This document shows, one piece after another, positions 13,767 through 53,524 of a stretch of 53,678 bases of DNA. Source of the stretch: Anaerolineae bacterium (GTDB lineage: Bacteria; Chloroflexota; Anaerolineae; B4-G1; SLSP01); assembly GCA_034434315.1 (NCBI GenBank), contig DAOTZR010000057.1, positions 1-53,678 of the forward strand, in the 5' to 3' direction. The position numbers and the translations under genes were made by a program. The notes beneath the pieces were generated by a model, which worked only from the letters and a program-made list of their open reading frames with translations, was not told the origin of the DNA and searched no databases. Every line of letters starts with the position of its first letter. Within the stretch, counting starts at the first letter, position 1.

Positions 13767-14142
13767 CCGTTATGTGGTTCGTGCAACTGAGGATCAGGAA
13801 GAGCTCTGGGCGGTCTGTGAACGTCAGGGCGTCGGGGAACAGATTCTGGCCTGGACTCACGATCGCGATGTAGCCTACCTGATCGCAGAAGCCCTGGAAG
13901 TGCTCCCCATCACCGTTGCGGCCATGGAAGAATGGGACGCCGGCTTTCGGGATAGCCCCAAGCTGGAAGCGTTAAAATATCGGCTTTTGGATTTGCACAG
14001 TGCTAAAAAGCGCTCTGATTTGCGCCTTGAAACTCATTCGTTTGTGGGCGACGCTCTGGAGTTGTTGCGAGCGATTCTGGTTGGCATGGTGGTTCTGTTG
14101 GCCCTGATTTATGGGCTTTCCTGGTTGGCGAAACTCTTGTAA
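13753..14142 (+). CDS. Hypothetical small protein with C-terminal tail-anchor TM helix
   Basis: The GTG start is preceded by GGAGGAAG 9 nt upstream and overlaps the kinase stop by 14 nt. The acidic helical body ends in ILVGMVVLLALIYGLSWLAKLL. No family was recognised. Confidence 0.5.
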   Translation: MKFRNRYVVRATEDQEELWAVCERQGVGEQILAWTHDRDVAYLIAEALEVLPITVAAMEEWDAGFRDSPKLEALKYRLLDLHSAKKRSDLRLETHSFVGDALELLRAILVGMVVLLALIYGLSWLAKLL

Positions 14143-14208
14143 CCCCCCCTGACCTTTTGCCGTTGAGCTGAAGGTGGGGTCCGGGCGAAAGCTGGCCCTG
14201 TAGAAGGC

Positions 14209-15864: not shown

Positions 15865-15907
15865 GGCTTTAATGTCATCAAGAACTGGCCTTGAGGAGGT
15901 TATCACA

Positions 15908-29323: not shown

Positions 29324-29428
29324 AGTGTCAACCCCATTGGTTGGATAACTACTGACTGAAGCATACCATAAGTGGAATGGCGATGGTGTTTCAGGCAAGT
29401 TACGATTGGGTTAAACCCTTGAAAATAC

Positions 29429-29456
29429 TTGACTACTCTTCAGAGCATGATAAAGT
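29429..29456 (+). promoter_or_regulatory. Putative sigma70 promoter of the signalling operon: TTGACT-N16-TAAAGT
   Basis: TTGACT at 29429..29434 and TAAAGT at 29451..29456, 91 nt upstream of the receiver gene. Confidence 0.5.
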
Positions 29457-29546
29457 TGCTTTGATGAAGCTGTGAAGCTGCCAGCATTGGTTCGGGCTTA
29501 AACGTAGCGGCCTGGATGCAGTATTTTTTATTCAGGAGGAACTGAG

Positions 29547-29927
29547 ATGCAAAATCGCAAGATCATGATCGTGGACGACGAAACTTTCATTCGCACTCTG
29601 CTGACGCAAACCCTGGAAGACCTGGAAGAGCAAGGTGTTGAAATTTTGACGGCCGGGGATGGAGAAGAAGCCCTGGCGTTGGCTCTGGATGAGGTACCGG
29701 ATTTGATTTTCCTGGATGTGATGATGCCGAAGAAAAGTGGTTATGAGGTCTGCGCCCAAATCAAGGCTCAACATCCGTCAACTTACGTGATTTTGTTGAC
29801 GGCGAAAGGGCAGGCTGTGGATAAGGAACAGGGCAATCGGGTTGGGGCCGATGAATACATTACCAAACCTTTCGACCCGGACTTCATCATGGAGCGAGCC
29901 GTAGACATTCTGCATCTGGAAGGCTAG
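29547..29927 (+). CDS. Stand-alone CheY-like response regulator receiver
   Basis: MIVDDE acidic pocket, phospho-Asp in IFLDVMMP, LLTA and ITKPF. AGGAGG RBS. 126 aa. Confidence 0.9.
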   Translation: MQNRKIMIVDDETFIRTLLTQTLEDLEEQGVEILTAGDGEEALALALDEVPDLIFLDVMMPKKSGYEVCAQIKAQHPSTYVILLTAKGQAVDKEQGNRVGADEYITKPFDPDFIMERAVDILHLEG

Positions 29928-29944
29928 CCGTGCCTGGATGATGT

Positions 29945-37508: not shown

Positions 37509-37596
37509 AAAGTCAGGTCTTGCGCATAGATGGAGCATTGTCAACGCAAGGGAATCAAAACCTGGTTGAAGCTGAAAACATGGAAGGATACATCCT

Positions 37597-39447: not shown

Positions 39448-39455
39448 GCCAGGAC

Positions 39456-42400
39456 ATGCTAGCGAACCAGCGTGAACATCAAGAGCGTTCCGACTTGCCT
39501 TCTGAGCGGGTCTGGTCTGCGCTGCGTGCTCTCCTGGAGTGTTCTACGTCCCTCGATTTCGCTCAAGTCATGACCCACCATGTGGGGACCTGGCCGGGTG
39601 TGGCTAAGGCCACACTGATCTTGTTGGATGGTGAGACAGGTCGGCCTCTCCATGCCGTTTATCACATGGCGCCCGCCACGATGCCGGCCTCGGAATCCAC
39701 CACGCTGGCCCTGGACTATCAACAGAAAACCTGCGCCTGGCTGGCCCTGGCCCCTATAGCGGGGGAAGCTTTGCCCGCGGTTACGCTGGCCGATACTCAG
39801 CTCCTGGTTCAGGCGGCTGTCCCGGTGCTGGTCCGGCTCCAGGCTCTGGAGGCCGAACGGGCGCAGCGCTCCCTGGCGGATGTGTTGTGCCGTTTGAGCG
39901 CGGAGATGGGCCAGGCAGCGGAAGAACCCACGTTGCTGTTTCAGGTGTTGAGTTATCTGGCGCGCGTTGTGCCTTATGAGTATGCTACGGTGCTCATGCG
40001 CGATGGGGAAGCCTGGCGTTATTTCACCCCCATCCATCCGGACATGCGTCCGGTAGAGGACGATTTTAGCCTGGCGCATCTGGATTTGTTGGAACAATTC
40101 CGGCAGGAGCGCAGGCTGTTGCTACTGGAAGAGGCTCTTTCCTGGCGCCCAGGGCATGCAGGGGAGCGCGTGGCGAGCTGGATGGGTATCCCCTTGCTGG
40201 TCCGCGGGGACCTGTGGGGGCTGATCGCGCTTGAAAGTCAGTTGTCAGGGGCTTTTCAGCCCGGTCATGCGCAAATGGCCACCGTTTTTGCGGAGCAGGT
40301 GGCGCTGGCCCTGGACAATACTCGCTTGTATCGCGAGGAACGCCAACGCCGTGAGGAGCTGGAGACTATCCAGCGCTTGAATTTGCTGGTGGCTTCGGAG
40401 TTGGAGCTGGAACCGCTGCGTCAGGCCATTGTCCAGGCCGTATACGGCCTGGTGCAACCTGAGCGGGTGAGCTTGTACGTCACCGGCGATGAGGGCGGGG
40501 ATGCGCAGGTGCAGGCTGCTCTCCTGGAGGCCCGGCCCTGGAAAACCCCCGAAACGGAAGACGGCGCCGGAATGCGGCTGGTGATGCCCCTTCACCTGGG
40601 GGCGCGGGTGGTGGGAGCGCTGGATTTGTGTTGGAAACCGGGAACTTATCGCCCCTCCTATCAGAGCCGCCTGCAGGCCCTGGCCCCGCAGATTGCCGTG
40701 GCTTTGGATAAAGCGCGGCTGTACCAGACGGCGCTGGAGGCCGGACAACGGCGCGCTGTGCTCCATGCCGTGGGGCAGGAGATTATCAGCGCTGTACGCG
40801 ATCTGCCCTCGTTGTATGCGGCCATCCATCGTGCCACCTTGCAGTTAATGGCTTGTGATGCGTTCTTCCTGGGCTTGGTGACTGAAGCTGAAGATGCCAT
40901 TGAGGTGGTGTATGCGGTGGACCGGGGCAAGGTGTATACGGGGGTGCGGGCTCCCCGCGGGCAGGGCCTGAGCTGGCATGTGGTCACAACCGGTCAGGCC
41001 CTCCTCATTGGCGAACAGGATGCATCGAATTTGGGCGTTAAGGCTATTCAAGTGGGCGAGGAGCCGGTGCGCTCTTTGTTATTTGTGCCCATGCGTCTGG
41101 AGCAGCGGATCCTGGGTGTGCTTTCGGCTCAGAGTTACCGGCCTGACGCTTATACCAACGATGATATCCTCCTTCTGGAAATGCTGGCGGCTCAGGCTGC
41201 TATCGCCATCGAGAATGCACGGCTGTTGCATCAGACGCAGAGACGCGCGGCTTTTCTGGAGGCTCAGAACGCCATCATTGTTTCGGCGGCGGCGGCCCAG
41301 GACCTGTCGGAGGTGCTGGCGCAGATTCTGGACCTGGTAATGAGCGTGTTACAGGTGTCGCTGGGGGGTATCTGGGTGGGGACACGGTATGAGGTGCGGA
41401 ATCTTCCCCAGTTCGCAGCCTATGTGGATGAGGCTATGCAGTATACGCAACAGTTAGAGCTGACAAGCCCCCTGACTGTTTCTGACTGGTATACGACCGA
41501 GCTGACCGGTCTGCGGGCCTATACCGGGCCTTTCCTGATGCGTCTGGGTTTCCGTTCTTCTCTGACTGTGCCGATTAAGACACAGAACCAGACAATTGGG
41601 GGATTTTTGATCGGGACTTCCGAACCGCGCCATTGGAATACAGAAGAGATTGCTCTGGTGGAGACGGTAGGGCATCAGGTCGGGACGGTGGTCCGCCGGC
41701 TGCAACTTGTGGCGCAAACCCAGGCCCAGGCCCAGGAGTTGGAACGTTACAGCCGTTCTCTGGAAGAGCAGGTGCAGGCACGGACCCGGGAGCTGGAACG
41801 CGCTTACCAGACCTTGAGCGAGCAGCATGCCCGCCTTGACGCGATTTTGCGGCACATCACCGATGCCCTGGTGGTCACGGATAGGGAGGGGCGGATTGTC
41901 CTGGTGAATCCGGCCTTTTGCGCTCTGGTGGGACGGGATGCCGGGAATTTGAAGGGGACGCTTTTAAACGCCGTCCTCCCCTCTCCTGCTCTGGAAGAGG
42001 CTTTGAAGCAGGTGCTACAGGCTGCGGAATCCAGGGTGAGCGCTACTTATGAGTGTGCCGGGGGCGTGTACCGCGGTACGTCCGTTGTGCTCGCGGGGAC
42101 GGACCCGCTTTCCATCGTGACGGTTTTGCATGATATTACGGCTGATGTCGAGATGGCGCGCATGAAGGATGATTTTGTCTCCACGGTTTCTCATGAGTTG
42201 CGCACGCCTATGACCTCCATTTTGGGGTTCAGTCAGTTGATTGGGCGGCAATTTCAGCGCCATATTGTGCCGCATTTGCCCAAGGACAGGCCGGAGGTGC
42301 AGAAAGCCGTGGCGCGGATCACGGAGAACCTGGACATTATCGCTCAGGAGGGGGCGCGGCTTACCCGGCTGGTCAACGACACCCTTGATCTGGCCCGCAT

Positions 42401-42938
42401 GGAATCCGGGCGCCTGGAATGGGCTTCCAAACCTTTCACGCTACAGGAGGTGGTTTCGGCCACTCTGGCCGCTTTGCGCTCGTTGATGTTGGAGAAACAT
42501 CTTGCAGTGCACACGACTGTGCCACCCGATTTACCTGCCCTGGTGGGGGATCCGGATCGCATCATTCAGGTCCTCACGAACCTGGTGGGGAATGCCTTGA
42601 AGTTTACGGATCGCGGGGCGATTACACTGACCGCCGGGCTGGTGCCGCCTGGAAGCGATGTGCCTGCGTGGGGCATACGCCAGCCAGGGGTGGAGATCGG
42701 GCTACCAGCGCCTTGTCCGCTTGTGCTGGTGTGTGTGACCGATAGTGGCCCAGGTATCCCAGAGGCGGATATGGCCCGTCTGTTCCAGCGTTTCCAGCAG
42801 GGTGGGAGTCGGCGCGGCGGGAGTGGCCTGGGCCTGGCGATTTGCCGTGAGATCATTCAACACCATCACGGCGCAATTTGGGTTGAAAGCCGGCTGGGAC
42901 AGGGCAGCCGCTTTTGCTTCACACTTCCCCTGCCTTAA
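39456..42938 (+). CDS. Cytoplasmic multi-GAF (4-5) PAS histidine kinase
   Basis: 1160 aa. The repeated GAF blocks end in ALALDNTRLY, AVALDKARLY and AIAIENARLL. H-box TVSHELRTPMTSILGF, N-box NLVGNALKFT, DSGPGI and GSGLGLAICREII. Confidence 0.88.
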   Translation: MLANQREHQERSDLPSERVWSALRALLECSTSLDFAQVMTHHVGTWPGVAKATLILLDGETGRPLHAVYHMAPATMPASESTTLALDYQQKTCAWLALAPIAGEALPAVTLADTQLLVQAAVPVLVRLQALEAERAQRSLADVLCRLSAEMGQAAEEPTLLFQVLSYLARVVPYEYATVLMRDGEAWRYFTPIHPDMRPVEDDFSLAHLDLLEQFRQERRLLLLEEALSWRPGHAGERVASWMGIPLLVRGDLWGLIALESQLSGAFQPGHAQMATVFAEQVALALDNTRLYREERQRREELETIQRLNLLVASELELEPLRQAIVQAVYGLVQPERVSLYVTGDEGGDAQVQAALLEARPWKTPETEDGAGMRLVMPLHLGARVVGALDLCWKPGTYRPSYQSRLQALAPQIAVALDKARLYQTALEAGQRRAVLHAVGQEIISAVRDLPSLYAAIHRATLQLMACDAFFLGLVTEAEDAIEVVYAVDRGKVYTGVRAPRGQGLSWHVVTTGQALLIGEQDASNLGVKAIQVGEEPVRSLLFVPMRLEQRILGVLSAQSYRPDAYTNDDILLLEMLAAQAAIAIENARLLHQTQRRAAFLEAQNAIIVSAAAAQDLSEVLAQILDLVMSVLQVSLGGIWVGTRYEVRNLPQFAAYVDEAMQYTQQLELTSPLTVSDWYTTELTGLRAYTGPFLMRLGFRSSLTVPIKTQNQTIGGFLIGTSEPRHWNTEEIALVETVGHQVGTVVRRLQLVAQTQAQAQELERYSRSLEEQVQARTRELERAYQTLSEQHARLDAILRHITDALVVTDREGRIVLVNPAFCALVGRDAGNLKGTLLNAVLPSPALEEALKQVLQAAESRVSATYECAGGVYRGTSVVLAGTDPLSIVTVLHDITADVEMARMKDDFVSTVSHELRTPMTSILGFSQLIGRQFQRHIVPHLPKDRPEVQKAVARITENLDIIAQEGARLTRLVNDTLDLARMESGRLEWASKPFTLQEVVSATLAALRSLMLEKHLAVHTTVPPDLPALVGDPDRIIQVLTNLVGNALKFTDRGAITLTAGLVPPGSDVPAWGIRQPGVEIGLPAPCPLVLVCVTDSGPGIPEADMARLFQRFQQGGSRRGGSGLGLAICREIIQHHHGAIWVESRLGQGSRFCFTLPLP

Positions 42939-42960
42939 TCTATGCAGAAAGGAACAGTGT

Positions 42961-43413
42961 ATGGGACGGATTTACGATGGGTTCATTCAGTTTTTCAAGC
43001 AGGATGACTGGCCCTACCAGGAGATAGAAGGTCGTCCCCTTATCCGCACCGGCTTTGCCGGAAAAAACGGGGAATGGGCCTGTTTTGCTCAGGCGCGTGA
43101 GGATATGGAGCAATTTGTGTTCTACTCGATTGCCCCGGTGAAGGCCCCGGCTGAGAAACAAGCTGCTGTGGTGGAGTTTCTCACCCGGGCCAATTACGGC
43201 ATGATCATCGGCAACTTCGAGTTTGATTATTCGGATGGCGAGGTGCGGTATAAAACGGCCCTGGATGTCGAGGGCGGCGACGCCACCTTCCCGATGTTGC
43301 GCAATCTGATCTACATCAATGTACGCACTATGGACCGCTACCTGCCAGGTCTGATGAAGGTGATCTACACGGATATTGCGCCGGCTGACGCTATTCGCGA
43401 AATAGAGGGCTGA
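42961..43413 (+). CDS. YbjN-like putative sensory-transduction regulator
   Basis: The 150-aa acidic protein begins at ATG 42961 (MGRIYDGFIQFF...). The pattern F....W.Y......l...f.G..g.w...... ...Y.....v......LTRANYGMIIGNFEFDYSDGEVRYKTAL fits the YbjN/T3SS-chaperone-like fold. The longer 222-aa ORF is read-through from the kinase in another frame. Confidence 0.55.
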   Translation: MGRIYDGFIQFFKQDDWPYQEIEGRPLIRTGFAGKNGEWACFAQAREDMEQFVFYSIAPVKAPAEKQAAVVEFLTRANYGMIIGNFEFDYSDGEVRYKTALDVEGGDATFPMLRNLIYINVRTMDRYLPGLMKVIYTDIAPADAIREIEG

Positions 43414-43450
43414 AACAACTCCAGAAGCTCCTGAGGCAGGGGGATCAAGT

Positions 43451-43482
43451 AAACCTGGCGCCCAGCACCGGACGCCAGGTTT
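43451..43482 (+). terminator. Hairpin after the ybjN-like gene (possible weak terminator)
   Basis: AAACCTGGCG-(12 nt)-CGCCAGGTTT, a 10-bp stem with no real U-tract. It is followed by TTGCGC-N15-TATAAT (43481..43507), a possible promoter for the next gene. Confidence 0.35.
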
Positions 43483-43631
43483 GCGCCTGTGTCAACCCGG
43501 GTATAATTGTGAGGGCAGGCTTTAACCATGATGTGTGGCCGCCTGTCGCTTTTAAAGCGGCGGACAGCCTGGGCCTGGTATGGTTTTAGGGGTAGTGTTG
43601 TGTTTATTTTAAGGCATTATTTTGAGGTTGT

Positions 43632-45158
43632 ATGGCTGATTCTACAGTACCTGTACATATCCTGGTGGTGGATGACAATCCCAACATTCGTGACTTCATC
43701 AAGGATTCCCTGCTGGAGCCACAGGGCTATCGTGTCAGCGTAGCGGTAGATGGGCAGGAGGGTGTCGAAAAAGCCCTGGAACTCAGGCCCGACCTGATTC
43801 TGCTGGATTACGAAATGCCGCGCCTGAATGGGATTGAGGTGTTGCGAGCCCTGCAAAAGCATCAGGTGATGATCCCCGTCATCCTTATCACATCCTATGG
43901 TTCGGAGTCCGTGGCCGTGGAGGTTTTCCGCCTGGGCGTGCGGGACTATGTGCCCAAACCCTTTACCGCGGAAGAGCTGTTTGCGGCCATAGACCGGGTT
44001 CTGCATCAGGTTCATCTGGAACGTGAACGCGATCAGCTTATGGAGCAGTTGCAGGTGACCAATCGGGACCTGGCCCAGAGGTTGAAAGAGCTGGACACGC
44101 TGTACCATGTGAGCAAATCCGTGACGACGCTGTACGAGCGCGAAAAACTGATGGAACGCATTGTGGACGCCGCGCTCTACATCACGGGCGCTCTGGAGGG
44201 GCTGCTGGTGCTGCTCGATCCCCAGACGGGTGAACCGCGCGTCGCCACGCATCGCATCTATGCCAACAATGAGTATCGCTCTCTGGAAAGTCGGGCCTTG
44301 ATGTTGCACGACACAGATTTGATGGTCAGCGTTCCCCTGCAATCGCGGGGTCAGGTTATCGGCGCCCTGACCATGAGCAATAAAATGAGCCGTCAGCCGT
44401 TCAGTTCACACGATCGGCTTCTGTTAAAGATGCTAGGGGACTATGCTGCAATCGCCATTGAAAATGTGCGTCTGTTAAACGAACTGGAAGAGCGCCGCGA
44501 ACGTGAGAAGCGCGAGTTGCGCACCCTGTTTGAACATTACGTGGCCCCGCAGGTCGTGGAGCGCATCCTGAAACACCCCCAGAGCGTGCAGCCTGGAGGC
44601 CAGCGCCATACCATCAGCATTCTCTTCGCCGATATTCGAGGGTTTACCGCTTTCAGTGCCCAAACTGCTCCAGAGGTTTTGATGGGGGTCTTGAATCAGC
44701 ACCTGGGGTGTGCCGCCGGTGTGATCCTGGAGGAAGAGGGTACCCTGGATAAATTCCTTGGGGACGGCGTGATGGCCTTTTTTAACGCGCCTTTGCCCCA
44801 ACAGGACTATGCTTTGCACGCCGTTCGGGCCGCCTGGAAGATTATCGAGCGCGTTCAGGCCATGCACGCGGAACTCCCGGTCCAGTACCGCCTGCCTCTG
44901 GGCATCGGTATCAGTACCGGTGAGGCCGTTGTAGGCAACCTGGGCACGTCGCATCTGGTCAACTACACGGCGATTGGCTCCACGGTGAACAAGGCCCATG
45001 CTTTGCAGGAGCTTGCTGGCCCCTGGAAGGTGCTTATCTGCCAGCGCACCTATGATTTGGTGCGCGACAAGGTGCGGGCCAGGACCCTCCCCGCCGTATG
45101 GATTAAGGGCCAGGCTCAGCCTGAGCCGGCCTACGAAATCGAAGCGCTGATGGAGTGA
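43632..45158 (+). CDS. Response-regulator receiver + GAF + class III cyclase-homology domain (variant catalytic motif)
   Basis: REC motifs [19 protein letters not shown] and VPKPF. GAF block (…[19 protein letters not shown]…[11 protein letters not shown]). The cyclase core has [18 protein letters not shown] and [10 protein letters not shown], but reads VNKAHA where VN.A.R is expected. Confidence 0.85.
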
Positions 45159-45166
45159 GACAGGCC

Positions 45167-45691
45167 ATGCCGGTCTTTTTCGATCTGGAGACGCAAAATA
45201 TTTTTGAGGACGTAGGGGGCCATTTTCCCGAACGGCTCAGGCTTTCGGTAGCGGTCACTTTCGATGACCGCACCGAAAGCTGGCGGCGTTTCACCGAGGC
45301 CAATGTGGCCGACCTGATTGCACAGTTGCAACAGGCCGACCGCGTCGTGGGGTTCAATCTGCTGGGTTTCGATTACCTGGTCTTGAAAGCCTACACGCCG
45401 CTGGACCTGAGCACGCTACCCACCGTGGACATGTTGGCTATCATCGCCCGGCAGTTGGGCTACCGTGTGAGCCTGGATGCTCTGGCGACGGCAACGCTGG
45501 GCGAAACCAAGAGCGCTGACGGCTTACAGGCCGTGCGCTGGTGGCGCGCCGGGCGCATCGAGGAGGTGTTCCGCTACTGCGAACAGGACGTTCTGGTCAC
45601 CCGGCGCCTGTATGAGTTTGGGCGCAGCTATCACTACGTTCAGTTCTACGATAAACGCTACCGGCTTCAGCGCGTTCCGGTAAACTGGTAA
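45167..45691 (+). CDS. DnaQ/PolB-type 3'-5' exonuclease-fold (RNase H-like) protein
   Basis: ExoI-like FFDLETQN, ExoII-like VGFNLLGFDYLVL and ExoIII-like YCEQDVLVTRRLY. Start is at ATG 45167, or at GTG 45155 overlapping the cyclase stop. Confidence 0.65.
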   Translation: MPVFFDLETQNIFEDVGGHFPERLRLSVAVTFDDRTESWRRFTEANVADLIAQLQQADRVVGFNLLGFDYLVLKAYTPLDLSTLPTVDMLAIIARQLGYRVSLDALATATLGETKSADGLQAVRWWRAGRIEEVFRYCEQDVLVTRRLYEFGRSYHYVQFYDKRYRLQRVPVNW

Positions 45692-45702: not shown

Positions 45703-46278
45703 CTACGTGTCCACGTTCCACTGCAACGGGTGAATGCCGCTCAGCACCACCTCGCCCTCCGGGGTGATGATGACCTCTGCTTCGGGCACGCTGCTGAGCG
45801 CTGCCAGTGTGTAGCGCGATGTAAGGAAGTAGACCTCTTTGTTGGCCGATCCGCGCAGGTCGCGTGCCAGGCGCTGCGTGGCCAGGTACCGCCCGCAGAT
45901 CAGGACATCTACATGCGCCAGCAGCGCCTGGACTTCGGGCATGGCCTCCAGTTCCGTTCGGGTGTAGCCGGTAAAAAGGATGACCGACAGCGTCGAGGCC
46001 GCGCGTACCGCTTCCAGCAACCGCCGCAAAGGGCGCACCTGTTGGAGTGGCTCGCCGCCGCTGATGGTGAGACCTTCGAGCTCAGGCAAAGCCAGGATTT
46101 GCCGGGTCAGGTCTGCCACCGACACGGACGTGCCGCCCTGGGGAGCGTGGGTTTGCGGATTGTAACATCCCCGGCAGTTCAGGGTGCAGCCCTGGACCCA
46201 AAGCACAGCGCGCAGGCCCGGCCCGTTGGCCGCACTCCGCGGCCAGAAACTGTGGATTCTCAGCTCGTCTTCAGCCAT
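45703..46278 (-). CDS. NrdG-like radical-SAM activating enzyme (no glycyl-radical partner in the window)
   Basis: NGPGLRAVLWVQGCTLNCRGCYNPQTH (CxxxCxxC cluster in an NrdG-type context), LTISGGEPLQQ, ILFTGYTRTEL, DVLICGRY and LRGSANKEV. It aligns by eye along its whole length with E. coli NrdG. Confidence 0.8.
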   Translation of the reverse strand: MAEDELRIHSFWPRSAANGPGLRAVLWVQGCTLNCRGCYNPQTHAPQGGTSVSVADLTRQILALPELEGLTISGGEPLQQVRPLRRLLEAVRAASTLSVILFTGYTRTELEAMPEVQALLAHVDVLICGRYLATQRLARDLRGSANKEVYFLTSRYTLAALSSVPEAEVIITPEGEVVLSGIHPLQWNVDT

Positions 46279-46466
46279 GTCTGGTTGGGCAGACTTTCAT
46301 CCGTCGCATAAGCTGCAGGCAGCATGTCGCGCGCCAGAATTTCGTTGCCCAGGGCCTCCTCCAATGCGCGGGTCAGGTCCAGGCAGGCCATGCCCTTGAC
46401 GCCGTGCACCTGGATGGTGACTTCGCCATTGGGCGCGATAATGATTTCGATTTCCTGATACTCCAT
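46260..46466 (-). CDS. DUF2997-family small protein
   Basis: The 68-aa MEYQEIEIIIAPNGEVTIQVHGVKGMACLDLTRALEEALGNEI... begins at ATG 46466. A GAGGAGG RBS overlaps the DUF1257 stop (TGAGGAGGAAGCCATG). It is hidden inside the 171-aa ORF 46260..46775. Confidence 0.7.
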   Translation of the reverse strand: MEYQEIEIIIAPNGEVTIQVHGVKGMACLDLTRALEEALGNEILARDMLPAAYATDESLPNQTWLKTS

Positions 46467-46476
46467 GGCTTCCTCC

Positions 46477-46860
46477 TCAGACCATGCGCCGCAAGCGCAG
46501 ATGGATGCAGCCCTTCTCGTCCACTTCCTCCCCGGCCAGGGTGAATCCCTGCGCTTCCAGACGCTGCCGGGCCAGGATGGTGGCGTACCGTTGGGTGAGC
46601 TGGCGGGTAAACTCGTTGGCTTTGAGTCCCCGGACACCCCACCAGTCGGCGACGATTTCGTAGCCATCCGGCGTCGCCTGGAAGCCGATTTCGTAACTTG
46701 AGCGGCTGGGACGAAACTTAAAGTCAACCCGGTGTTTGGCCCCTCCAAAACCACGGATTGCGCCGGGGCTGTCACTTACCGTGTAGCCCATCTGCTCCAA
46801 CGCAGCAATGAGCGCGGCTTTATCTTTGAGACGAATTTTCAAACGGGTGAAATGGGACAT
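46477..46860 (-). CDS. Ycf35/DUF1257-family protein
   Basis: MSHFTRLKIRLKDKAALIAALEQMGY...IRGFGG...YEIGFQATPDGYEIVADWWGV is the DUF1257 signature. GAGGAG RBS. Confidence 0.75.
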   Translation of the reverse strand: MSHFTRLKIRLKDKAALIAALEQMGYTVSDSPGAIRGFGGAKHRVDFKFRPSRSSYEIGFQATPDGYEIVADWWGVRGLKANEFTRQLTQRYATILARQRLEAQGFTLAGEEVDEKGCIHLRLRRMV

Positions 46861-46883
46861 GGCTTCTCCTCAAATGCATGGTT

Positions 46884-48464
46884 TCAGGTCAAACGGATGA
46901 CAGGGTAATCCTTGTACACTAGCTTGCCGGTGCGCAAATCACGCGCTGTGAGCAAGAGCCGCTTGTTGGCATCAATGCTGAAAACAATTTCAAAACATTT
47001 CTCGCCCTGGTGCGCTGGCGGGTCAGCTACCAGGAAGGTGGGCTGGTGTTCATTCATCCAGAAGTACTGGCGGCGGTATTGCTCTTCGGCACTGGTGGGC
47101 GTCAGGCGCGCCGCTCCACTGGGGTCGAACACCAGCTCGAAAGCCCCTACGGCCTGGGTCCGTGTCTCACTCACCTCGAACAGTGCAACGCCCAGTTGGA
47201 TCTGTTGATCGTACGAGGCTTTGACGGTGAGCCGCGCTATGGCTTCCGCCGGATAGGGAGTGCCGCGCTCAACAATCGTCCAGTAGTCGTAATCCTGCTT
47301 TTCGCGATTCACATAGCGGATGGCGTAGCTGTGTTGAATGTGATCGTAAAAATCCATGCCGGCAGCAAAGGCCGCTGCCCCACGGGCAATGGCATCCAGG
47401 GGCCGTTTCAGCCGGACCCGCTCCGCGCCAAAACTGCGTTGCAGCAGACTTTGTACAGCCGGAATCTGACTGCTGCCTCCCACCATCAAAATCGCCTTGA
47501 TGTGGTCTTCATCGTATCCCCGCTCATAAGCGCCGTTCAGAGCGCGGCGCAAGGTGCGCTCGATGGTGGTAAAAGCGCCGTGACGTTCCAACAGGGCTTC
47601 GAACTGTTCACGGGTGTAATCGGCTGCCAGCACCGTTCCGGTTTGAGGATCCACAACGCTGATGGTCGCCTGGGGGTGCTGCGAAAGGTGGACTTTGGCC
47701 TGCTCGCACTCCAGCAGTAACCAGGTACTGACGCGGCGCACCAACTCGTCAGCATCCGAACGTTGATGGCGCTGCAGGACATCCATGAACAGCCATTGGT
47801 CGAGCACCGCGCCCCCAAGGTCCGCTCCCGCTTTGCCCAACACGCGGCAGCGCTGGCCGCTGGTGTTCTCCTCAATCAAGACCACCGCCGTGTGCACGGT
47901 GCCCCCTCCAAAATCGAAAATCAGATACACATCGCCTGGGCGAATCGGAGCGCCGTACCCAAGGGCCGCCGCCGAAGGCTCATCAATCAGGCGGAAGCGC
48001 GGCATATCGTTTTGCTGGGCAATGCGCGTCAGCCAGTCCTCATAGTGCTCAAAAGCTTCCACCGGAACGCTGAAAGCCACTTCTTCGGCAGGATCCTGGC
48101 CAGTTTCCTGCCGGGCGAACAGGAGCACAGTGCTGAGAAAGTCCTGCGCTGCTTCATAGGGGGTGATGTCGCGGTCACCTACGCGGACGCGATAGGGGCT
48201 GCGCTGCGCGATATACCGCTTCATCCACCGAAAAGTGCCGGGCGCATGGGCCAGGTTCTGCTGCAGCACTTGCGCCCCCAGCCAGCGGCGTCCATCCGCC
48301 TGGTAATGGATGAGCGAGGGGATCACGGCTACCTGTTCACCCCCCTGAGGGTAAAAATGGCTGTAATCGGGGATGAACACGGGTTTCCCTTCCTCGGCCA
48401 GGGCATCCCACAGGGCGATAACCGTGTTGGAGGTGCCGAAATCAATGCCCAACCGGCCTGCCAT
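46884..48464 (-). CDS. Non-canonical Hsp70-family ATPase lacking the helical lid
   Basis: Actin-fold motifs GIDFGTSNTVIA, LIDEPSAAALGYG, IFDFGGGTVHTAVV and MVGGSSQIPAVQ. The SBD-beta-like end IVFSIDANKRLLLTARDLRTGK terminates the protein at 526 aa. A strong GGAGGGAGGAG RBS is present, and the start lies 23 nt inside the GrpE-like gene. Confidence 0.85.
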   Translation of the reverse strand: MAGRLGIDFGTSNTVIALWDALAEEGKPVFIPDYSHFYPQGGEQVAVIPSLIHYQADGRRWLGAQVLQQNLAHAPGTFRWMKRYIAQRSPYRVRVGDRDITPYEAAQDFLSTVLLFARQETGQDPAEEVAFSVPVEAFEHYEDWLTRIAQQNDMPRFRLIDEPSAAALGYGAPIRPGDVYLIFDFGGGTVHTAVVLIEENTSGQRCRVLGKAGADLGGAVLDQWLFMDVLQRHQRSDADELVRRVSTWLLLECEQAKVHLSQHPQATISVVDPQTGTVLAADYTREQFEALLERHGAFTTIERTLRRALNGAYERGYDEDHIKAILMVGGSSQIPAVQSLLQRSFGAERVRLKRPLDAIARGAAAFAAGMDFYDHIQHSYAIRYVNREKQDYDYWTIVERGTPYPAEAIARLTVKASYDQQIQLGVALFEVSETRTQAVGAFELVFDPSGAARLTPTSAEEQYRRQYFWMNEHQPTFLVADPPAHQGEKCFEIVFSIDANKRLLLTARDLRTGKLVYKDYPVIRLT

Positions 48465-48945
48465 CGGCTCCTCCCTCCGTGCTGGCGCTGACGCCGGGCC
48501 GGGCTATCACCCGTCCGCGATAGCGCAGACCTGGCACGCACACCTGGGCGCGCTCACCGGGCCGGAGTGGCGGCCCTACAGGAATGTGCAGCGTGGGGTC
48601 GAAGCGTACCGCCATGCCGATGGGCTCGCTTTCTTCCAGCCCGTGGCTCTTGAGGACGGCGAGCAAGCGCTGCACAATGCGCCACAGGTCCTGCGCCGAA
48701 ACAGCCTGTCCCTGTTCGATGAGCGTGCCTTGCAAGATCAGTTGCGCTATGGGCGCTCCCAGGTCGAGGAACAAAGCCTCCACCCGTGCCACAACCTGAG
48801 CCTCGAGGGCCTCCCCGCCCTGGCGACGCCTTTCGGCCTCGCATTCCTGCAGGGCCAGGCGCAGGCTCTGCACCTCGGATTTCAGTTTCAACAACTCCAT
48901 GGCGTCCTGATCCGTTTTTTCGGCTTTGCGTGACCAGAATGGCAT
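48442..48945 (-). CDS. GrpE-like nucleotide-exchange factor
   Basis: N-terminal coiled coil followed by the GrpE-type C-terminus GLEESEPIGMAVRFDPTLHIPVG...GERAQVCVPGLRYRGRVIARPGVSAS. ATG 48945 is preceded by AGGAGG. The ORF-track start at 48993 is a GTG overlapping the upstream stop. Confidence 0.65.
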   Translation of the reverse strand: MPFWSRKAEKTDQDAMELLKLKSEVQSLRLALQECEAERRRQGGEALEAQVVARVEALFLDLGAPIAQLILQGTLIEQGQAVSAQDLWRIVQRLLAVLKSHGLEESEPIGMAVRFDPTLHIPVGPPLRPGERAQVCVPGLRYRGRVIARPGVSASTEGGADGRPVGH

Positions 48946-48989
48946 GACGTCCTCCTGAATGATTATGTCCCGGCTGGGCCGATGGGCCC

Positions 48990-51092
48990 TCACCCTTCCA
49001 GCTCGATGTCGAACTCGCCCACCACCAATTCTGGCGCTGCTTCCAACTCGATTTCATAGCGTCCGCGATGCAGCAGCACCAGGATGGTGAACTCCAGGGC
49101 GCGGCGGATGGCCGGGTCCAGCGTCGGGCGCTCGGCCAGCCAGCGCAGATGGCCGGCACTGGCGGGATTCAATTGGGCCATGGGCCGGGCGAACAAATAG
49201 GGCAGCTCCAGCAGGCGCAAATCCCAAAGGGCGAACGAGGTTTCGCTGGTTCCCAGGGCCATGAACGCGCCATCGGCTGAAACCTGCAGTCCGGTGACGT
49301 GTCCACTGTGCACATCCAACTCCAGTACCGGCGCCCAGTTTTCCAGATCGACCCCGCGCAACAGGCCGCTGCTATCCAGACTCAGTAACAGATTGTAGCG
49401 CGGCAATGCGGCCAATCCCACCACGGTAGCCGGATGCCGGGTCAGCTCGCGTTTCGGCGCCGAGCTCATGCTCTCCAGGTCCAGCAAGACCACCTGTCCC
49501 TGATGCATACCCAGCACCAGGTCTTTCTGAGCCAGGGTGGCTGTTTTCACCCGACCATTGGCAAAGCGCCAGCCCACTTCCTTGAGATTGGGCAAGGTCA
49601 GGTGCGTGATCAGATGGCCCAGGAACACCAGGCTCTGGTCGTGGACCGGGCAGAGCTGGTGTGCCCAGCCATGCATCTCGCGCTCGCCCAGCAGCCTCCC
49701 CGAAGGAAGCTCCCACAGTCGCAACGTGCCCTCGCGTCCGGATGAAACGCCCCAGGCCTCCCCAACCACAGCCACACTGGCCCGCCCTCGATGCTGTCCC
49801 AGGGCGCGCGTCTCTTCGGGGCGCTTGAGATACACGCTGACGGGCGCGTCAGCGCGTTGGGCGCGTTCGCTGCACAGCAGCCATTCGGTCGGGGTGAAGG
49901 CGACCTGATGGACCGCGTGCTGGAAGCGGGTGAACAGGGCCGTCCGCTGCGCCTTCACGTAATCCCACAGCACGACCCGCCCGGTGCCGATGGCCGCAGC
50001 CAGCAGAGGGCTTTGCGGCGCGAAGGCGACCGCATTCACGCGGCCCGGTGCGCGCACCAGGGCCATCTGTTGCAGCAAGGCCTGCTGCTTGCGGATCTGA
50101 TCGGGCACGGCGAGCACTCCCGCCCGGACCAGGGCGCCCAGTTTGACCAGCAGGTCCTGATCCCCGGCAGCGGACGGTTGCCAGCCTGCAGCCAGCAGGC
50201 GTTCCATCACCCAGGCGCTCCAGGCGGTATGCACCTGCGGGACCAGCTCCCATAAAGCCGGCCATTGCTCTTCCTTGACCATAATGTCCAGCACCAGCTG
50301 TGTTTCAGCAGGCGTGAGGGCCGCAGCCCGGAGCCGGTTTTCGCCACCTGTGAGAATGGGCAGGAAATCCGTCCGTCCGGCTCGTCGCAGCCGCTCGCGG
50401 ATGCGCGCGCGCAGGGGTTCAGTGGCGGTTGTGTAAAGTGCGCGCAGTCGGCGCCGGTCGAAATCCAGGGCGTCGTACGCTTCCCAGCGCTCCTGGAGCA
50501 ACCAGTACAGCGCCCGTTCCTGTTCATCCTCAGGTTCGAACGCCTGGTTGGCCAGCGCCTCCAAAGCCAGAGGATGGTCACTTTGGCGCGCCAGGTCCCA
50601 CAGGGCTTCCAGCGCCTTTTTGCGCTTGAGACCCAAAAGCGCCCGGCGCGCCCGTTCGGCTATCAGGGGATCCGGGTCGGCACAGGCCTCTAACAGAGCG
50701 GGTAAGCTGGCTGCTCCTATGCGTTCGGCTAGCTCCTGCGCTTTGTTCTGGAAGAGGAACGTGAGGACCCGCACATGGATCGGAGCTTCCGCGACCCAGC
50801 CCTGTTCGCGCAAAAACTGGCTCAGATGGGGCGCGCGCGTCCGACTCCAGATCTGGCAAATGTGATCGCGTTTTATGGGCGCATCAATTCGGCGCAACCT
50901 GGCCCGGACCAGGGCCTGGACCTGGGGATCGGGATGTTCCAGGGCCTCGACCAACGCATCCAGTACCGGCAGCGAATTGCCGGCCAGGGTCAGAAGCCAG
51001 GCGGCCAGGCGTTGGACCCAGGGGGCCAGGGCGGGGAGCGCATTCCAGGTGAGCCAGGATTTTAACCAGGGCATGAGCGTGCCGGATATCAC
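48990..51092 (-). CDS. HEAT/ARM-repeat + WD40-like beta-propeller protein
   Basis: The N-terminal half has HEAT-like units (LEHPDPQVQALVRARLRR, ACADPDPLIAERARRALLGL). The C-terminal half has WD-like blades (GRVVLWDY, GTLRLWELPSG, GLLRGVDLEN, TSFALWDLR). The GTG start at 51092 overlaps the ycf46-like stop (GTGA). An alternative ATG is at 51074. Confidence 0.65.
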   Translation of the reverse strand: MISGTLMPWLKSWLTWNALPALAPWVQRLAAWLLTLAGNSLPVLDALVEALEHPDPQVQALVRARLRRIDAPIKRDHICQIWSRTRAPHLSQFLREQGWVAEAPIHVRVLTFLFQNKAQELAERIGAASLPALLEACADPDPLIAERARRALLGLKRKKALEALWDLARQSDHPLALEALANQAFEPEDEQERALYWLLQERWEAYDALDFDRRRLRALYTTATEPLRARIRERLRRAGRTDFLPILTGGENRLRAAALTPAETQLVLDIMVKEEQWPALWELVPQVHTAWSAWVMERLLAAGWQPSAAGDQDLLVKLGALVRAGVLAVPDQIRKQQALLQQMALVRAPGRVNAVAFAPQSPLLAAAIGTGRVVLWDYVKAQRTALFTRFQHAVHQVAFTPTEWLLCSERAQRADAPVSVYLKRPEETRALGQHRGRASVAVVGEAWGVSSGREGTLRLWELPSGRLLGEREMHGWAHQLCPVHDQSLVFLGHLITHLTLPNLKEVGWRFANGRVKTATLAQKDLVLGMHQGQVVLLDLESMSSAPKRELTRHPATVVGLAALPRYNLLLSLDSSGLLRGVDLENWAPVLELDVHSGHVTGLQVSADGAFMALGTSETSFALWDLRLLELPYLFARPMAQLNPASAGHLRWLAERPTLDPAIRRALEFTILVLLHRGRYEIELEAAPELVVGEFDIELEG

Positions 51093-52621
51093 GGTTGGAG
51101 TTGCAATGGCACGAAGCGCTGTTGGGCCTCACGGACTTCACGGAAAGAAGCCGATTGCGCTCGCCCCTCCAGGAGCCAGGCGCGCAGCGCTTCTACCTGC
51201 TCGCGCTGAGAGATGGACAGCGGCACCAGGCGTCTCAGGGCTTCGAGGATGTCGTTGGTAGTAAACTCGCGGTTTTCGCCGAAACCGTTATACATCGCAT
51301 CAATGATGGCCTGTTCGATTTCCGCTCCGGTATACCCTTCAGCCTGACGGGCCAGGCGCGGCAGGTCGAAGTCCTGGGGCAGGCGCTTGCGCTTACGGAG
51401 ATGGACGGTGAAAATCTCCTCGCGCTCCTCCTGCGTAGGCAGGTCGAGGAAGAAGATCTCGTCGAAGCGCCCCCGACGTAGCAATTCGGGGGGGAGGCTG
51501 CTGATGTCGTTGGCGGTTGCTACCACGAAACACGGGGCGGTTTTTTCCTGCATCCAGGTGAGGATGGTTCCAAAAACGCGCGTGCTGGTGCCGCTATCCA
51601 GACCGCCATGGGCCAGGGCCTTCTCCATCTCATCAATCCACACCACACAGGGGGCTATGGTTTCGGCCAGATGCAAAGCCCGGCGCGTGCGCTCCTCCGA
51701 CTCGCCCACCAGACTGCCGAAAAGCGCGCCGACATCCAGGCGCAACAAAGGCAAGCGCCACAATCCGCCAATCATCTTAGCCGTGAGGCTTTTCCCCGTG
51801 CCAGGGATGCCGATGAGGGCAATGCCCTTGGGCGCTGGCAGTCCGTAATCACGGGCCTCTTGCGTGAAAGCACGTTCACGCAGGCGCAGCCAGTTCTTCA
51901 ATACGCCCAACCCGCCGACATCCTCCAGGGTTTCGCTCGCGCTGGAGAATTCCAGGGCTTCATGGCTGCGGATGAGCTGTTTTTTCTCCTCGGTGATCGC
52001 CTCAATATCACGCTCGTCCAGCTTCCCATTGCGGACAAGACAGCGAGCGAAGGCGCGCTGCGCCTGGGCCAGGGTCAGGCCCAACGCCGCCTGCACCAGC
52101 TTCTCCCGCCCCAGCGGGGTCAAATCAGAACGAACCCCCGGCGTCTGGAGTAACTGTCCCAGGGCGGCATCCAGTTCGGCGGCTGAAGGCAGGGGCAGTT
52201 CAGTGAGGACCGCCTCGTCGCGCAGTTCGAGCGGAACCTGGCCGGCTGGCGTGAGCACAAGCAGGGATTTCCGGGTATAACGCAGGTCCTGAGCTGTGCT
52301 GCGCAATTTGCGCTTCACCTGGGCATTGTTCCACACCTCATGGAAGTCCTTCAACACCAGCAACAGGGGATCCGAAGCCTTTTCGACATAGTCCAGGGCC
52401 TGGAGCGGGTCGCGGATGGCCGGGGGGAAGGAAAACGAACCACTGAGCGGCTGAAAGCCGTTGGCCAGGTCCCAGGTCAGGGCAGGGCGCTTCTGCCGTT
52501 CGCAGACGTTCTGGAGCATGCGCAGTGCCCGCTCCTCTTCTACCGTGTTGAGGACAATCAACGTAAAACGCGCGCGCAAGTACAAATCCAGTTGCTCTTC
52601 AAAAATCAACCTGTCTCCCAT
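51089..52621 (-). CDS. Ycf46-family AAA+ ATPase
   Basis: Classical AAA core with Walker [13 protein letters not shown], Walker [14 protein letters not shown] sensor-1 region and [16 protein letters not shown]. The ~240-aa N-domain ([13 protein letters not shown]...LTWDLANG...LLLVLKDFH) and the ~510-aa length match my recollection of plastid/cyanobacterial Ycf46. GGAGG RBS. Confidence 0.8.
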
Positions 52622-52823
52622 CCGGTCATACCTCCATCTCCATCCATCCCTTCAAACTGACCTGAAACCGGGTTGGGATAAACACCTGCCGGGGGAACCA
52701 TAGGGGAGGATAGAACATGACTTTACGTCGTACAGCCAGCCGCAAGCTGAGCGAGCTGCCTGGCTGAATGGCATGGAGCAGCCTTGCCAGGCTGGCCCGG
52801 CCTTTGTAAGGAAGGGGAAGCTT

Positions 52824-53447
52824 TCAGAGCTTCCTCAGAGCAAACACACATTCTGTGGTCTGGGTCTCCCCGACGGCTGCACAGCTCGTCTCGGTGACCT
52901 CAAAATAATCCTCCAGCTCGGCCCATTCCAAAGCCTGCTGCAGGAAGCCCAACGTGCTGTGACAGACAGGCTGGGCCTCATGCTTCCGGCCCCAGCACGC
53001 CGGGCAGGGGGCAACATGATAGAGTAGCACCCCGTTTTCTTCGGTGAGGTACGTGCGTACCGTGCTCTGTTTGCTCATGCCCTTGATGATGGCTTCCAAA
53101 AGGGTTTTAATCCGGGGGCGCGGGGGCAAGAGCTTGAACGCTACACCGGCCAGGCCCAAGGCGCTCCCCAATTGTTCGATGGCGGCGTTAAAAGCCGCAC
53201 GTCCGGCGCGGAGCGCTAGAGCCCGTCCGCCGCGCGGACCGTACATCTCTTCCAGGACCTGGTTCATGCGCGAGAAATCGTCCAGGCTTACTTCCAGGGC
53301 GTCATTGTAGTCGGGCGGATTGGCAATCCAGGCCTCCAGATTCGCCAGACGCAGCACGGCATGCAACCCATGCTGCCCGATAACCTCAGTAATGGCGTCA
53401 AGGTAAATCCGTGTGCGGCGGTTAGATTGCCTGTGTTGTGTTTCCAT
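52824..53447 (-). CDS. V4R (4-vinyl-reductase-like) small-molecule-binding domain protein
   Basis: The C-terminal V4R Cys pattern is VAPCPACWGR...PVCHSTLGFLQQAL...EVTETSCAAVGETQTTECVF. The start was moved to ATG 53447 (METQHR) because a consensus promoter lies inside the longer 243-aa ORF. The RBS is purine-rich (GGAAAGGACGGGGAAG). Confidence 0.65.
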   Translation of the reverse strand: METQHRQSNRRTRIYLDAITEVIGQHGLHAVLRLANLEAWIANPPDYNDALEVSLDDFSRMNQVLEEMYGPRGGRALALRAGRAAFNAAIEQLGSALGLAGVAFKLLPPRPRIKTLLEAIIKGMSKQSTVRTYLTEENGVLLYHVAPCPACWGRKHEAQPVCHSTLGFLQQALEWAELEDYFEVTETSCAAVGETQTTECVFALRKL

Positions 53448-53495
53448 CTTCCCCGTCCTTTCCTGGATGGAACCCTTATCACAAAGGTTATATAG

Positions 53496-53524
53496 ATTAT
53501 AGCTATTCTTGGGTAAGAATGCAA
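53496..53524 (-). promoter_or_regulatory. Near-consensus sigma70 promoter: TTGCAT-N17-TATAAT (minus strand)
   Basis: On the plus strand, ATGCAA at 53519..53524 is the -35 and ATTATA at 53496..53501 is the -10. The spacer is 17 nt, and the -10 lies 49 nt upstream of the V4R ATG. Confidence 0.65.

Follow-up and report, generated by a model that had tools for sequence, protein, structure and literature searches.

Two conserved reading frames of plastids and cyanobacteria, Ycf46 and Ycf35, are to our knowledge still without a biochemical function after three decades. We describe here a cluster of seven genes in which a member of the Ycf35 family and an AAA+ ATPase, probably of the Ycf46 type, are encoded together with a lidless Hsp70, a GrpE homologue, a HEAT-WD40 protein, a DUF2997 protein and a radical-SAM enzyme of the glycyl-radical-activase type. 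The cluster runs from position 52621 to position 45703 on the minus strand of contig DAOTZR010000057.1 (assembly GCA_034434315.1) of an Anaerolineae bacterium of the Chloroflexota, a stretch of 53,678 nucleotides that was analysed as a whole and is referred to below as the window. We propose that the seven genes encode one ancient, dedicated, ATP-driven protein-remodelling machine, a reading that we hold with confidence and doubt in roughly equal measure.

The closest described systems each share part of this composition. As in DnaK-DnaJ-GrpE, the Hsp70 has a complete nucleotide-binding domain (NBD) and a beta substrate-binding domain (SBD), and the GrpE gene lies immediately upstream and is translationally coupled; unlike in that system, the Hsp70 has no lid, its linker reads DFYDHIQH, no J-protein is found in the loci, and the pair is embedded with AAA+, HEAT-WD40, Ycf35, DUF2997 and radical-SAM genes. 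The distance from DnaK and HscA is also seen in scores of ~110 bits against models whose cut-offs exceed 600. The ClpB/Hsp104-Hsp70 disaggregase is comparable since a hexameric AAA+ protein and an Hsp70 are encoded together, suggesting two cooperating ATP-driven machines. However, the AAA+ protein described here is a single-ring classical AAA of the Cdc48/Vps4/Ycf46 group and not a two-ring Clp/Hsp100 protein, has no M-domain, carries leucine instead of an aromatic pore-loop residue and comes with a radical-SAM enzyme and a scaffold family of its own. In HscA-HscB-IscU, a specialised Hsp70 that does not need GrpE is genetically tied to an iron-sulfur protein and small escort proteins, as could be said of the present cluster; yet the latter lacks an IscU-type scaffold, HscB and a desulfurase, and possesses GrpE, AAA+ and WD40 proteins. 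An analogy, not a homology, exists with clathrin uncoating by Hsc70 and auxilin, in which a protein made of an alpha-solenoid and a beta-propeller, ending in a short C-terminal tail, is the partner of an Hsp70. In our case the domain order is reversed, the tail is acidic and there is no J-protein.

The radical-SAM enzyme resembles the activases of the PflA-PflB and NrdG-NrdD pairs: it is small, with an N-terminal Cx3Cx2C motif, a preceding (D/N)GxGxR motif and GGEP, its best family being NrdG and its best structure the pyruvate formate-lyase activating enzyme (PFL-AE), from whose structure the role of (D/N)GxGxR in peptide binding is known. It differs from these activases in that no glycyl-radical enzyme accompanies the cluster in any lineage, in scoring below the NrdG cut-off and in having DUF2997 and Ycf35 as fixed partners. 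The only glycine that tracks the enzyme is located in the tail of the HEAT-WD40 protein, in a context unlike the glycyl-radical motif RVxG[FY].

Cyanobacteria and plastids share with the cluster a DUF1257 protein starting with MSH and an AAA+ protein of Ycf46-type size and architecture, and in cyanobacteria, as here, a DUF2997 gene is adjacent to the DUF1257 gene. In model cyanobacteria, these genes are dispersed: ycf46 (slr0374, Synpcc7942_0417), which is induced by high light, oxidative stress, the stringent response and dark transition, belongs to an operon of three genes whose induction by stress ranks among the strongest and which, according to a 2025 preprint, depends on (p)ppGpp, whereas ycf35 forms the conserved cyanobacterial cluster DUF2997-ycf35-fed7, in which fed7 and ycf35 both depend on SigD. 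Fed7, a 4Fe-4S protein, has a DnaJ-like binding partner, and plants possess DnaJ-Fed fusions. Both ycf35 and ycf46 tend to be lost jointly from red-algal plastid genomes. In contrast to this dispersal, the window carries a single cluster, including Hsp70/GrpE and the radical-SAM enzyme, in a non-photosynthetic Chloroflexota-type genome. Finally, GTPase-centred conflict systems (Kaur et al. 2020, PMC7159879) also combine a non-housekeeping Hsp70 with GrpE and repeat proteins in multicellular prokaryotes, but they are built on GAP1-N2 or DO-GTPases, tubulin and DnaJ/FNIII/TPR proteins, none of which is found here, and no Ycf46, Ycf35, DUF2997 or radical-SAM protein has been reported in those that contain Hsp70.

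No description of the cluster was found in a literature search that had most subscription journals outside its reach, and none of the searched papers mentioning DUF1257 or DUF2997 describes it, in agreement with an initial annotation of the window that knew of no characterised system of this composition. Because the defining features of the known systems are missing (lid and linked J-protein for DnaK, a glycyl-radical enzyme for the activases, IscU and HscB for HscA, GTPase and tubulin for the conflict systems), we consider the module a system of a new kind, each part of which stems from a known superfamily in a combination undescribed in the searched literature.

Gene content and linkage across genomes

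All open reading frames (ORFs) of 80 distinct genome loci surrounding orthologues of the Hsp70-like protein were called and, with those of the window, clustered all-against-all. These 81 loci span the Chloroflexota, Cyanobacteria, Planctomycetota, Verrucomicrobiota and smaller groups. The same families recur in the same order across these phyla and the linkage of the seven genes is not fortuitous. The Hsp70 (H) is present in all 81 loci, Ycf35/DUF1257 (Y) in 61, the HEAT-WD40 protein (W) in 60, DUF2997 (d) in 57, GrpE (G) in 51, the AAA+ ATPase (A) in 48 and the radical-SAM enzyme (R) in 46. H and Y are found together in 61 of the loci, Y-d-R in 43, and the set of A, W, H, Y, d and R in 33, most of the remainder being cut by contig ends. 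Apart from these families, the recurrent neighbours in the 81 loci amounted to shadow ORFs on the opposite strand and one family confined to related Anaerolineae.

Most commonly the genes are arranged as A-W-G-H-Y-d-R, and in many cases another W comes after R. Y-d-R-A-W-G-H, a circular permutation of this arrangement, is seen in Planctomycetota, Verrucomicrobiota, Thermaerobacter and one contig labelled as Actinomycetota, and therefore delimits two sub-modules, A-W-G-H and Y-d-R. The DUF2997 gene adjoins the DUF1257 gene in 57 loci and, judging by this gene order, Ycf35, DUF2997 and the radical-SAM enzyme travel jointly as a sub-module. In Cyanobacteria and Modulibacteria the cluster is present without the radical-SAM gene. 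A neighbour-joining tree of the Hsp70 sequences largely follows taxonomy, with Cyanobacteria, Planctomycetota, Verrucomicrobiota and Modulibacteria each forming a group and Chloroflexota distributed over several clades. Such a tree, combined with very high conservation, therefore points to an old, mostly vertically inherited and strongly constrained system and not to a mobile island.

Two loci depart from the common arrangement. In an Armatimonadota genome (L087) the system is split, with GrpE-Hsp70 on a separate contig (L017); at L087:3202-7017 and 10001-16023 the order is Ycf35-DUF2997-W-W, without a radical-SAM gene, and the DUF2997 gene overlaps the start of W. Upstream, at a distance of a few kb, are found a second Hsp70 (545 aa), a gene of the FGE-sulfatase fold and a reverse transcriptase, an ensemble that looks like a diversity-generating retroelement (DGR). 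In a Pleurocapsales locus (L015), DUF559, DUF7683 and toxin-antitoxin pairs of the HTH_37/Gp49 type are inserted between GrpE and Hsp70 and after DUF2997 (8461-9768 and 12459-13185).

According to its ORF list, the window carries eight consecutive ORFs on the minus strand, from 53447 to 45703, at the positions given by the initial annotation, which had taken them for a single operon. The conserved unit comprises seven of them, from the AAA+ to the radical-SAM gene, and excludes the first, V4R-like gene; a single promoter was not confirmed. The features are as follows.

51089..52621, minus strand: AAA+ ATPase (A) of the SpoVK/Ycf46/Vps4 group, 510 aa; PF00004 94 bits, AAA_lid_3 31 bits
48990..51092, minus strand: HEAT - central helical domain - WD40 propeller protein (W), 700 aa (694 aa from ATG 51074); HEAT_2 29-31 bits and many WD40-propeller models
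48993..49067, minus strand: C-terminal tail of W, GRYEIELEAAPELVVGEFDIELEG; family-wide motif
48442..48945, minus strand: GrpE homologue (G), 167 aa from ATG 48945; family profile against GrpE structures, PF01025
46884..48464, minus strand: lidless Hsp70 (H), 526 aa; PF00012 101 bits (cut-off 20.6)
46477..46860, minus strand: Ycf35/DUF1257 protein (Y), 127 aa; PF06868 67.5 bits (cut-off 22.2), N-terminal MSH
46260..46466, minus strand: DUF2997 protein (d), 68 aa; PF11211 52.8 bits (cut-off 24.1)
45703..46278, minus strand: radical-SAM enzyme (R) of glycyl-radical-activase type, 191 aa; Fer4_12 111 bits, Radical_SAM 34 bits
52824..53447, minus strand: V4R-like gene, 207 aa, an upstream neighbour outside the conserved module; V4R 27.9 bits (cut-off 31)
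53496..53524, minus strand: promoter-like TTGCAT-17-TATAAT, 5' of the V4R-like gene; read from the sequence, absent from the consensus-scan list

The tight junctions first read in the window are all present. The AAA+ stop and the W start share a GTGA; 44 nt containing AGGAGG separate W from GrpE; GrpE and Hsp70 overlap by 23 nt; a 23-nt gap precedes the DUF1257 gene; 10 nt lie between DUF1257 and DUF2997, where the Shine-Dalgarno sequence GGAGGA is placed on the DUF1257 stop codon; and DUF2997 overlaps the radical-SAM gene by 19 nt. Short or overlapping junctions are also the rule in the orthologous loci. In a near-identical NCBI assembly, the start of W is placed at an ATG six codons downstream, leaving a 14-nt gap after the AAA+ gene. 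More generally, the gene models agree with the independent gene calls of public assemblies, and profile-HMM searches upheld the AAA, HSP70, DUF1257, DUF2997 and radical-SAM assignments as well as HEAT repeats and WD40-type propellers.

The encoded proteins

The AAA+ ATPase is composed of an N-domain of ~230 aa followed by one classical AAA module, its best relatives in the PDB being NVL, p97, Cdc48 and VAT. Its identity across phyla amounts to 65-86% and its motifs are kept: Walker A GIPGTGKS, Walker B WIDE, the pore-loop region GSLVGESE and the arginine fingers in RRGRFD. The N-domain (51929-52621) is highly conserved, with a mean column identity of 71%, but its 230 residues gave no Pfam match and weak matches only in a PDB profile search (E 0.13-0.3). 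Several of the latter correspond to the AAA+ modules of clamp loaders, RFC and HslU, and the domain may be a degenerate AAA-like domain. In two metagenome-assembled genomes (L009:2150-5749 and L034:6836-8554), an N-terminal piece of the AAA+ protein continues in frame into HEAT repeats, leaving no ATPase module; such joins may be genuine deletions or fusions or may stem from faulty assembly.

The naming of this protein as Ycf46 holds at the level of the group, as close homologues bear the SpoVK/Ycf46/Vps4 name (JGI), and nothing was found beyond this group name: the source annotations read only 'AAA family ATPase' and 'DUF1257 domain-containing protein', with neither Ycf46 nor Ycf35 mentioned. 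The copies found in cyanobacterial clusters are 68-73% identical to the window protein and of the same length, and the AAA+ ATPase is probably the Ycf46 of plastids and cyanobacteria.

In the Hsp70, the NBD is followed by the divergent linker and the beta SBD. Residues 1-369 match the DnaK NBD in the PDB, and the invariant residues D8, G10, T11, K82, E162, D184-G188 and G329-G330 are all kept in 64 sequences. With the catalytic motifs of both the AAA+ ATPase and the Hsp70 intact, the cluster is predicted to encode two ATP-driven engines, as had been proposed. All 23 PDB matches of a profile of residues 370-526 are Hsp70 SBDs, individually weak (best E 0.041), the alignment being anchored on the strand 7-8 signature PPAxxGxxxxEVxFxIDANxxLxxTA. 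In the AlphaFold2 (AF2) model, which has a predicted local distance difference test (pLDDT) score of 85.5, residues 379 to 524 are all-beta and helices are lacking beyond residue 464, and the chain stops ~10 residues past the last strand of the beta SBD. Profile search and model thus agree with the lidless character noted earlier: the beta domain is retained and the alpha-helical lid absent. Full-length relatives are 54-83% identical across phyla. Neither the DnaK (109 bits, cut-off 822) nor the HscA models of NCBIfam (104-107 bits, cut-offs 620-708) are satisfied, and this Hsp70 is a new branch, lidless and without a linked J-protein, with 54-65% identity from one phylum to another.

The GrpE-like call is sound for the family although the window protein alone remains under threshold (PF01025 16.7-17 bits, cut-off 25.8). 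The family profile matches GrpE structures 4ani (8.9e-10) and 1dkg (1.3e-8) over positions 13-173, covering the coiled coil and the C-terminal beta domain, and PF01025 is found in 23 of 25 members of the family (best 4.8e-12). On these profile matches, the protein is identified as a true GrpE homologue. Apparent GrpE-Hsp70 fusion products of 700 aa were rejected, as they result from the extension of an ORF across a stop codon.

The W proteins frequently occur as two to five paralogues per locus. Their best-conserved parts are a central helical block, corresponding to residues ~187-320 of the window protein, and a motif at the extreme C-terminus, R[FY]DIE[IV]-x8-10-G[ED][FY]DIE[IL]E, which is found once in the window and in nearly all of the 95 W sequences listed, plus those of L086 and L087. 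Paralogues of one locus share the tail while their bodies differ, as in two Anaerolineae loci (L005 and L024) with four or five tandem copies; in L024 and L026 an extra DUF1257-like ORF stands among the paralogues. These shared sequence features identify the W proteins as a specific family and not as generic repeat proteins. The alternating hydrophobic and acidic residues of the tail suggest two amphipathic beta strands, and we therefore expect an amphipathic beta-hairpin, which would be a docking element common to interchangeable scaffolds.

The DUF1257 protein is well supported by its Pfam score and keeps S2, H3, G59, D72, W73, G75, A93 and R125 invariant, S2 and H3 throughout 118 sequences. 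The literature equates DUF1257 with Ycf35 (PMC13060386 among other sources), of which the N-terminal MSH is a hallmark (PMC13060386). With an AF2 model of pLDDT 86.6 as query, Foldseek retrieved nothing below E 0.1 in the PDB, and a PDB sequence search was empty. Among viral models, Foldseek detected one true DUF1257 homologue, A0A7S5REL3 (31% identity, TM-score 0.72). A sub-threshold Rfam match to RAGATH-10 within the DUF1257 coding sequence (46523-46581, minus strand; 23.7 bits against a gathering threshold of 41.2, E 0.61) is most likely due to chance. The DUF2997 protein conserves G22, G25 and C28. In the cyanobacterial loci of the cluster, no ferredoxin was found beside Ycf35/DUF2997. Both here and in cyanobacteria, Ycf35 and DUF2997 are associated with a 4Fe-4S protein, the radical-SAM enzyme in the one case and Fed7 in the other, and each case shows a link to an Hsp70 system.

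The radical-SAM enzyme conserves NGPGLR, C31-x3-C35-x2-C38 and GGEP in its 46 orthologues. Its best NCBIfam match is NrdG (TIGR02491, 106.1 bits against a cut-off of 126.1), followed by PflA (68 bits against 232), neither cut-off being reached. Residues 7-145 align to PFL-AE (3c8f, E 3.6e-11), including RIHSF, NGPGLR (DGPGIR in PFL-AE) and the Cx3Cx2C motif. No glycyl-radical enzyme with an RVxG[FY] loop was found among the neighbours in the 81 loci, a search confined to these loci, and the description of the enzyme as an orphan activase is to that extent borne out. A differential-conservation search was made for residues that are invariant in loci with the radical-SAM gene and lost in loci without it. 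Ycf35, DUF2997 and Hsp70 contained no such residue; the AAA+ and GrpE-like proteins showed three minor positions only, from 3-4 cyanobacterial sequences. The glycine of the W tail is present in 67 of 70 tails from loci with the radical-SAM gene, the three exceptions being second paralogues, and in 3 of 10 tails from loci credibly lacking it, where Ser, Val or Ile replace it. We regard this correlation as a lead and not as a result; it makes the C-terminal tail of W itself, rather than an outside client, a candidate target of the enzyme.

Proposed function and competing explanations

The remodelling machine that we propose takes its starting point in the co-location of the genes, the intact catalytic motifs, the domain structures and the common tail; from these we infer which protein does what, where the tail docks and what the radical-SAM enzyme acts on. 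The W proteins, often present as several paralogues, would serve as interchangeable adaptors or scaffolds docking to common engines through their shared tail. A hexamer of the Ycf46 type and the lidless Hsp70 with GrpE would then remodel or disassemble the cargo of the scaffold, or else the assembled scaffold. The trio of Ycf35, DUF2997 and radical-SAM enzyme would constitute a redox- or radical-based licensing unit, dispensable in oxygenic lineages, in which the activase-like enzyme would take a hydrogen from a glycine of a cluster member, most plausibly the glycine of the W tail. Cyanobacteria, and plastids through Ycf35 and probably Ycf46, would have kept the core and dispensed with the oxygen-sensitive enzyme. 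A role in stress or redox processes agrees with published work, namely the stress operon of Ycf46, the DUF2997-ycf35-fed7 cluster with its Fed7-DnaJ interaction and the joint loss of ycf35 and ycf46.

In its most specific form, which we consider a long shot, the activase-like enzyme would act on the tail glycine (..VGEFDIELE), and the modified or radical-bearing tail would decide whether the AAA+ and Hsp70 proteins engage, producing a redox- or oxygen-gated remodelling switch of which cyanobacteria and, via Ycf35 and probably Ycf46, plastids would possess an oxygen-tolerant remnant. By analogy with pyruvate formate-lyase, a radical-bearing tail may be cleavable by oxygen. If true, this would provide a radical-SAM enzyme of the activase class with a non-enzyme substrate.

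Several observations weigh against these proposals. What the machine remodels, what the tail docks to and what the radical-SAM enzyme modifies are all deduced indirectly. Canonical Hsp70 cycles need a J-protein, and none is linked here: no J-domain family figures among the recurrent neighbours in the 81 loci, a J-protein elsewhere in the genome being possible. GrpE is missing from some otherwise complete clusters. The leucine at the usually aromatic pore-loop position, also found in p97 D1, means that threading by the AAA+ ATPase is not assured, and its orthology with plastid Ycf46 is no more than probable. As to the tail glycine, the loci without a radical-SAM gene represent only four or five independent lineages; the residue is lost in Pseudanabaena, Prochloron, Modulibacteria and one Chloroflexia locus and kept in Pleurocapsales, as well as in the Armatimonadota locus L087, which has no adjacent radical-SAM gene. 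The x-G-E-F context of this glycine is moreover unlike the glycyl-radical motif RVxG[FY].

A different function, the maturation and repair of iron-sulfur or radical enzymes, has to be considered. By analogy with HscA/HscB/IscU, Hsp70/GrpE and the AAA+ ATPase would load, protect or recycle the 4Fe-4S cluster carried by the radical-SAM enzyme, or by Fed7-type ferredoxins, and Ycf35/DUF2997 would act as scaffold or escort. Such a role would fit the company that Ycf35 and DUF2997 keep with a 4Fe-4S protein (the radical-SAM enzyme in 43 loci, Fed7 in cyanobacteria), the binding of a DnaJ-like protein by Fed7 and the DnaJ-Fed fusions of plants, the equal scores of the Hsp70 against HscA and DnaK models, the single invariant cysteine of DUF2997 and the invariant N-terminal histidine of Ycf35. 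It would also fit the joint loss of ycf34, ycf35 and ycf46 from red-algal plastids, the ycf34 product being, as we take it, an iron-sulfur protein in Synechocystis. We nevertheless find it unlikely, since no IscU-, NifU- or SufU-like protein, cysteine desulfurase or J-protein was found among the loci, HscA functions without GrpE, the large HEAT-WD40 family and its invariant tail are left without a role, and the core persists in cyanobacterial clusters devoid of both the radical-SAM gene and an adjacent ferredoxin. An anti-phage or conflict system of multicellular prokaryotes, with WD40/HEAT proteins as sensors, the chaperone and AAA+ proteins as a threshold device and the radical-SAM enzyme as effector, appears to us decidedly improbable. 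The uniform and extreme conservation, the taxonomy-like tree and the maintenance of Ycf35, and probably Ycf46, in plastids are the opposite of what is seen in patchy, fast-evolving defence islands; the flanking genes are housekeeping genes that differ between lineages, and no nuclease, protease, TIR or pore-forming effector is present. This holds despite the enrichment of the cluster in filamentous or complex bacteria (Anaerolineae, Chloroflexia, filamentous and baeocyte-forming cyanobacteria, Planctomycetota, Modulibacteria), the up to four or five W paralogues per locus, the toxin-antitoxin inserts of the Pleurocapsales locus and the DGR-like reverse transcriptase near L087. The occurrence of Hsp70 and GrpE in GTPase-centred conflict systems (PMC7159879) has also been weighed, but these systems differ by their GTPases, tubulin, DnaJ and FNIII proteins. 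The AAA+ protein matches the IetA models of PADLOC at 6e-22, a value that reflects generic AAA similarity because it is weaker than the matches to Cdc48 and FtsH. PADLOC returned no catalogued system, the remaining matches being generic AAA similarity to TRIP13, Hsp70 to PDC-M61B (6.7e-5) and viperin (0.0024), without an IetS partner, and membership in a defence system was rejected on this ground.

Two further readings concern the limits of the cluster. The reading that the adjacency is fortuitous, or that the ORFs are not real genes, is refuted: the mechanical nature of ORF lists calls for general caution only, and dozens of genomes belonging to several phyla share the arrangement of the seven families, with matching public gene calls. 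Very improbable too is the eight-gene operon of the initial annotation, in which a V4R ligand sensor would gate the machine. The V4R-like gene does lie immediately upstream on the same strand, with a -10 TATAAT before it, and nothing resembling a terminator separates it from the AAA+ gene. However, a tblastn search of the 80 related loci, among them the closest relative (L032, 80% Hsp70 identity), found no V4R homologue, so that V4R as a member of the system was rejected (0/80) and its role as a gate falls with it. Even the family call is incomplete, the score lying below the Pfam cut-off. Its likely start is the ATG at 53447 (207 aa) and not at 53555, and 202 nt separate the gene from the AAA+ gene, as against the tight junctions elsewhere in the cluster. 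This gap matched no Rfam family and contained no unusual RNA structure; a regulatory RNA was rejected here, folding being no better than that of shuffled sequences. As for the near-consensus promoter thought to serve all the genes, the -35 of TTGCAT-17-TATAAT (53524-53496) fits the consensus at 3 of 6 positions only, for which reason the site is not listed by the consensus scan, and it directly precedes the V4R-like gene alone. The scan itself found 1 site against 1.5 expected in shuffled sequence, thus no excess. The V4R-like gene is an unrelated neighbour.

Genomic surroundings and significance

Beyond the cluster, positions 26701-45158 of the window, together with 8531-11062, form a dense signalling island according to Pfam matches. 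It contains very large hybrid histidine kinases with multiple GAF and PAS domains (29945-35002, 34929-37508 and 39456-42938, and on the minus strand 26701-28440 and 8531-11062), a GAF-PAS nucleotide cyclase (37597-39447), a YbjN-like gene (42958-43413) and a receiver-GAF-cyclase (43632-45158). None of the signalling-island genes recurs beside the cluster in other genomes. A gene of RNase_H_2 or 3'-5' exonuclease type (45155-45691, plus strand) has a GTG start that overlaps the 3' end of the cyclase gene preceding it. It is convergent with the radical-SAM gene, the two ends lying 11 nt apart, and is shared with the near-identical assembly and not conserved beyond it.

The finding is real and somewhat narrower than the initial annotation, with seven genes, no V4R gate and no demonstrated single promoter, and at the same time richer through the scaffold tail and its link to the radical-SAM enzyme. 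It defines a radical-SAM activase without a glycyl-radical enzyme and, in DUF1257, a small fold without a solved relative. Cultured carriers, among them Longilinea arvoryzae, Anaerolinea thermophila and several cyanobacteria, give access to the system at the bench. The Ycf35 family and a Ycf46-type AAA+ ATPase are placed in one conserved operon of non-photosynthetic bacteria, which provides both kinds of proteins with concrete, testable partners and a candidate chemistry.

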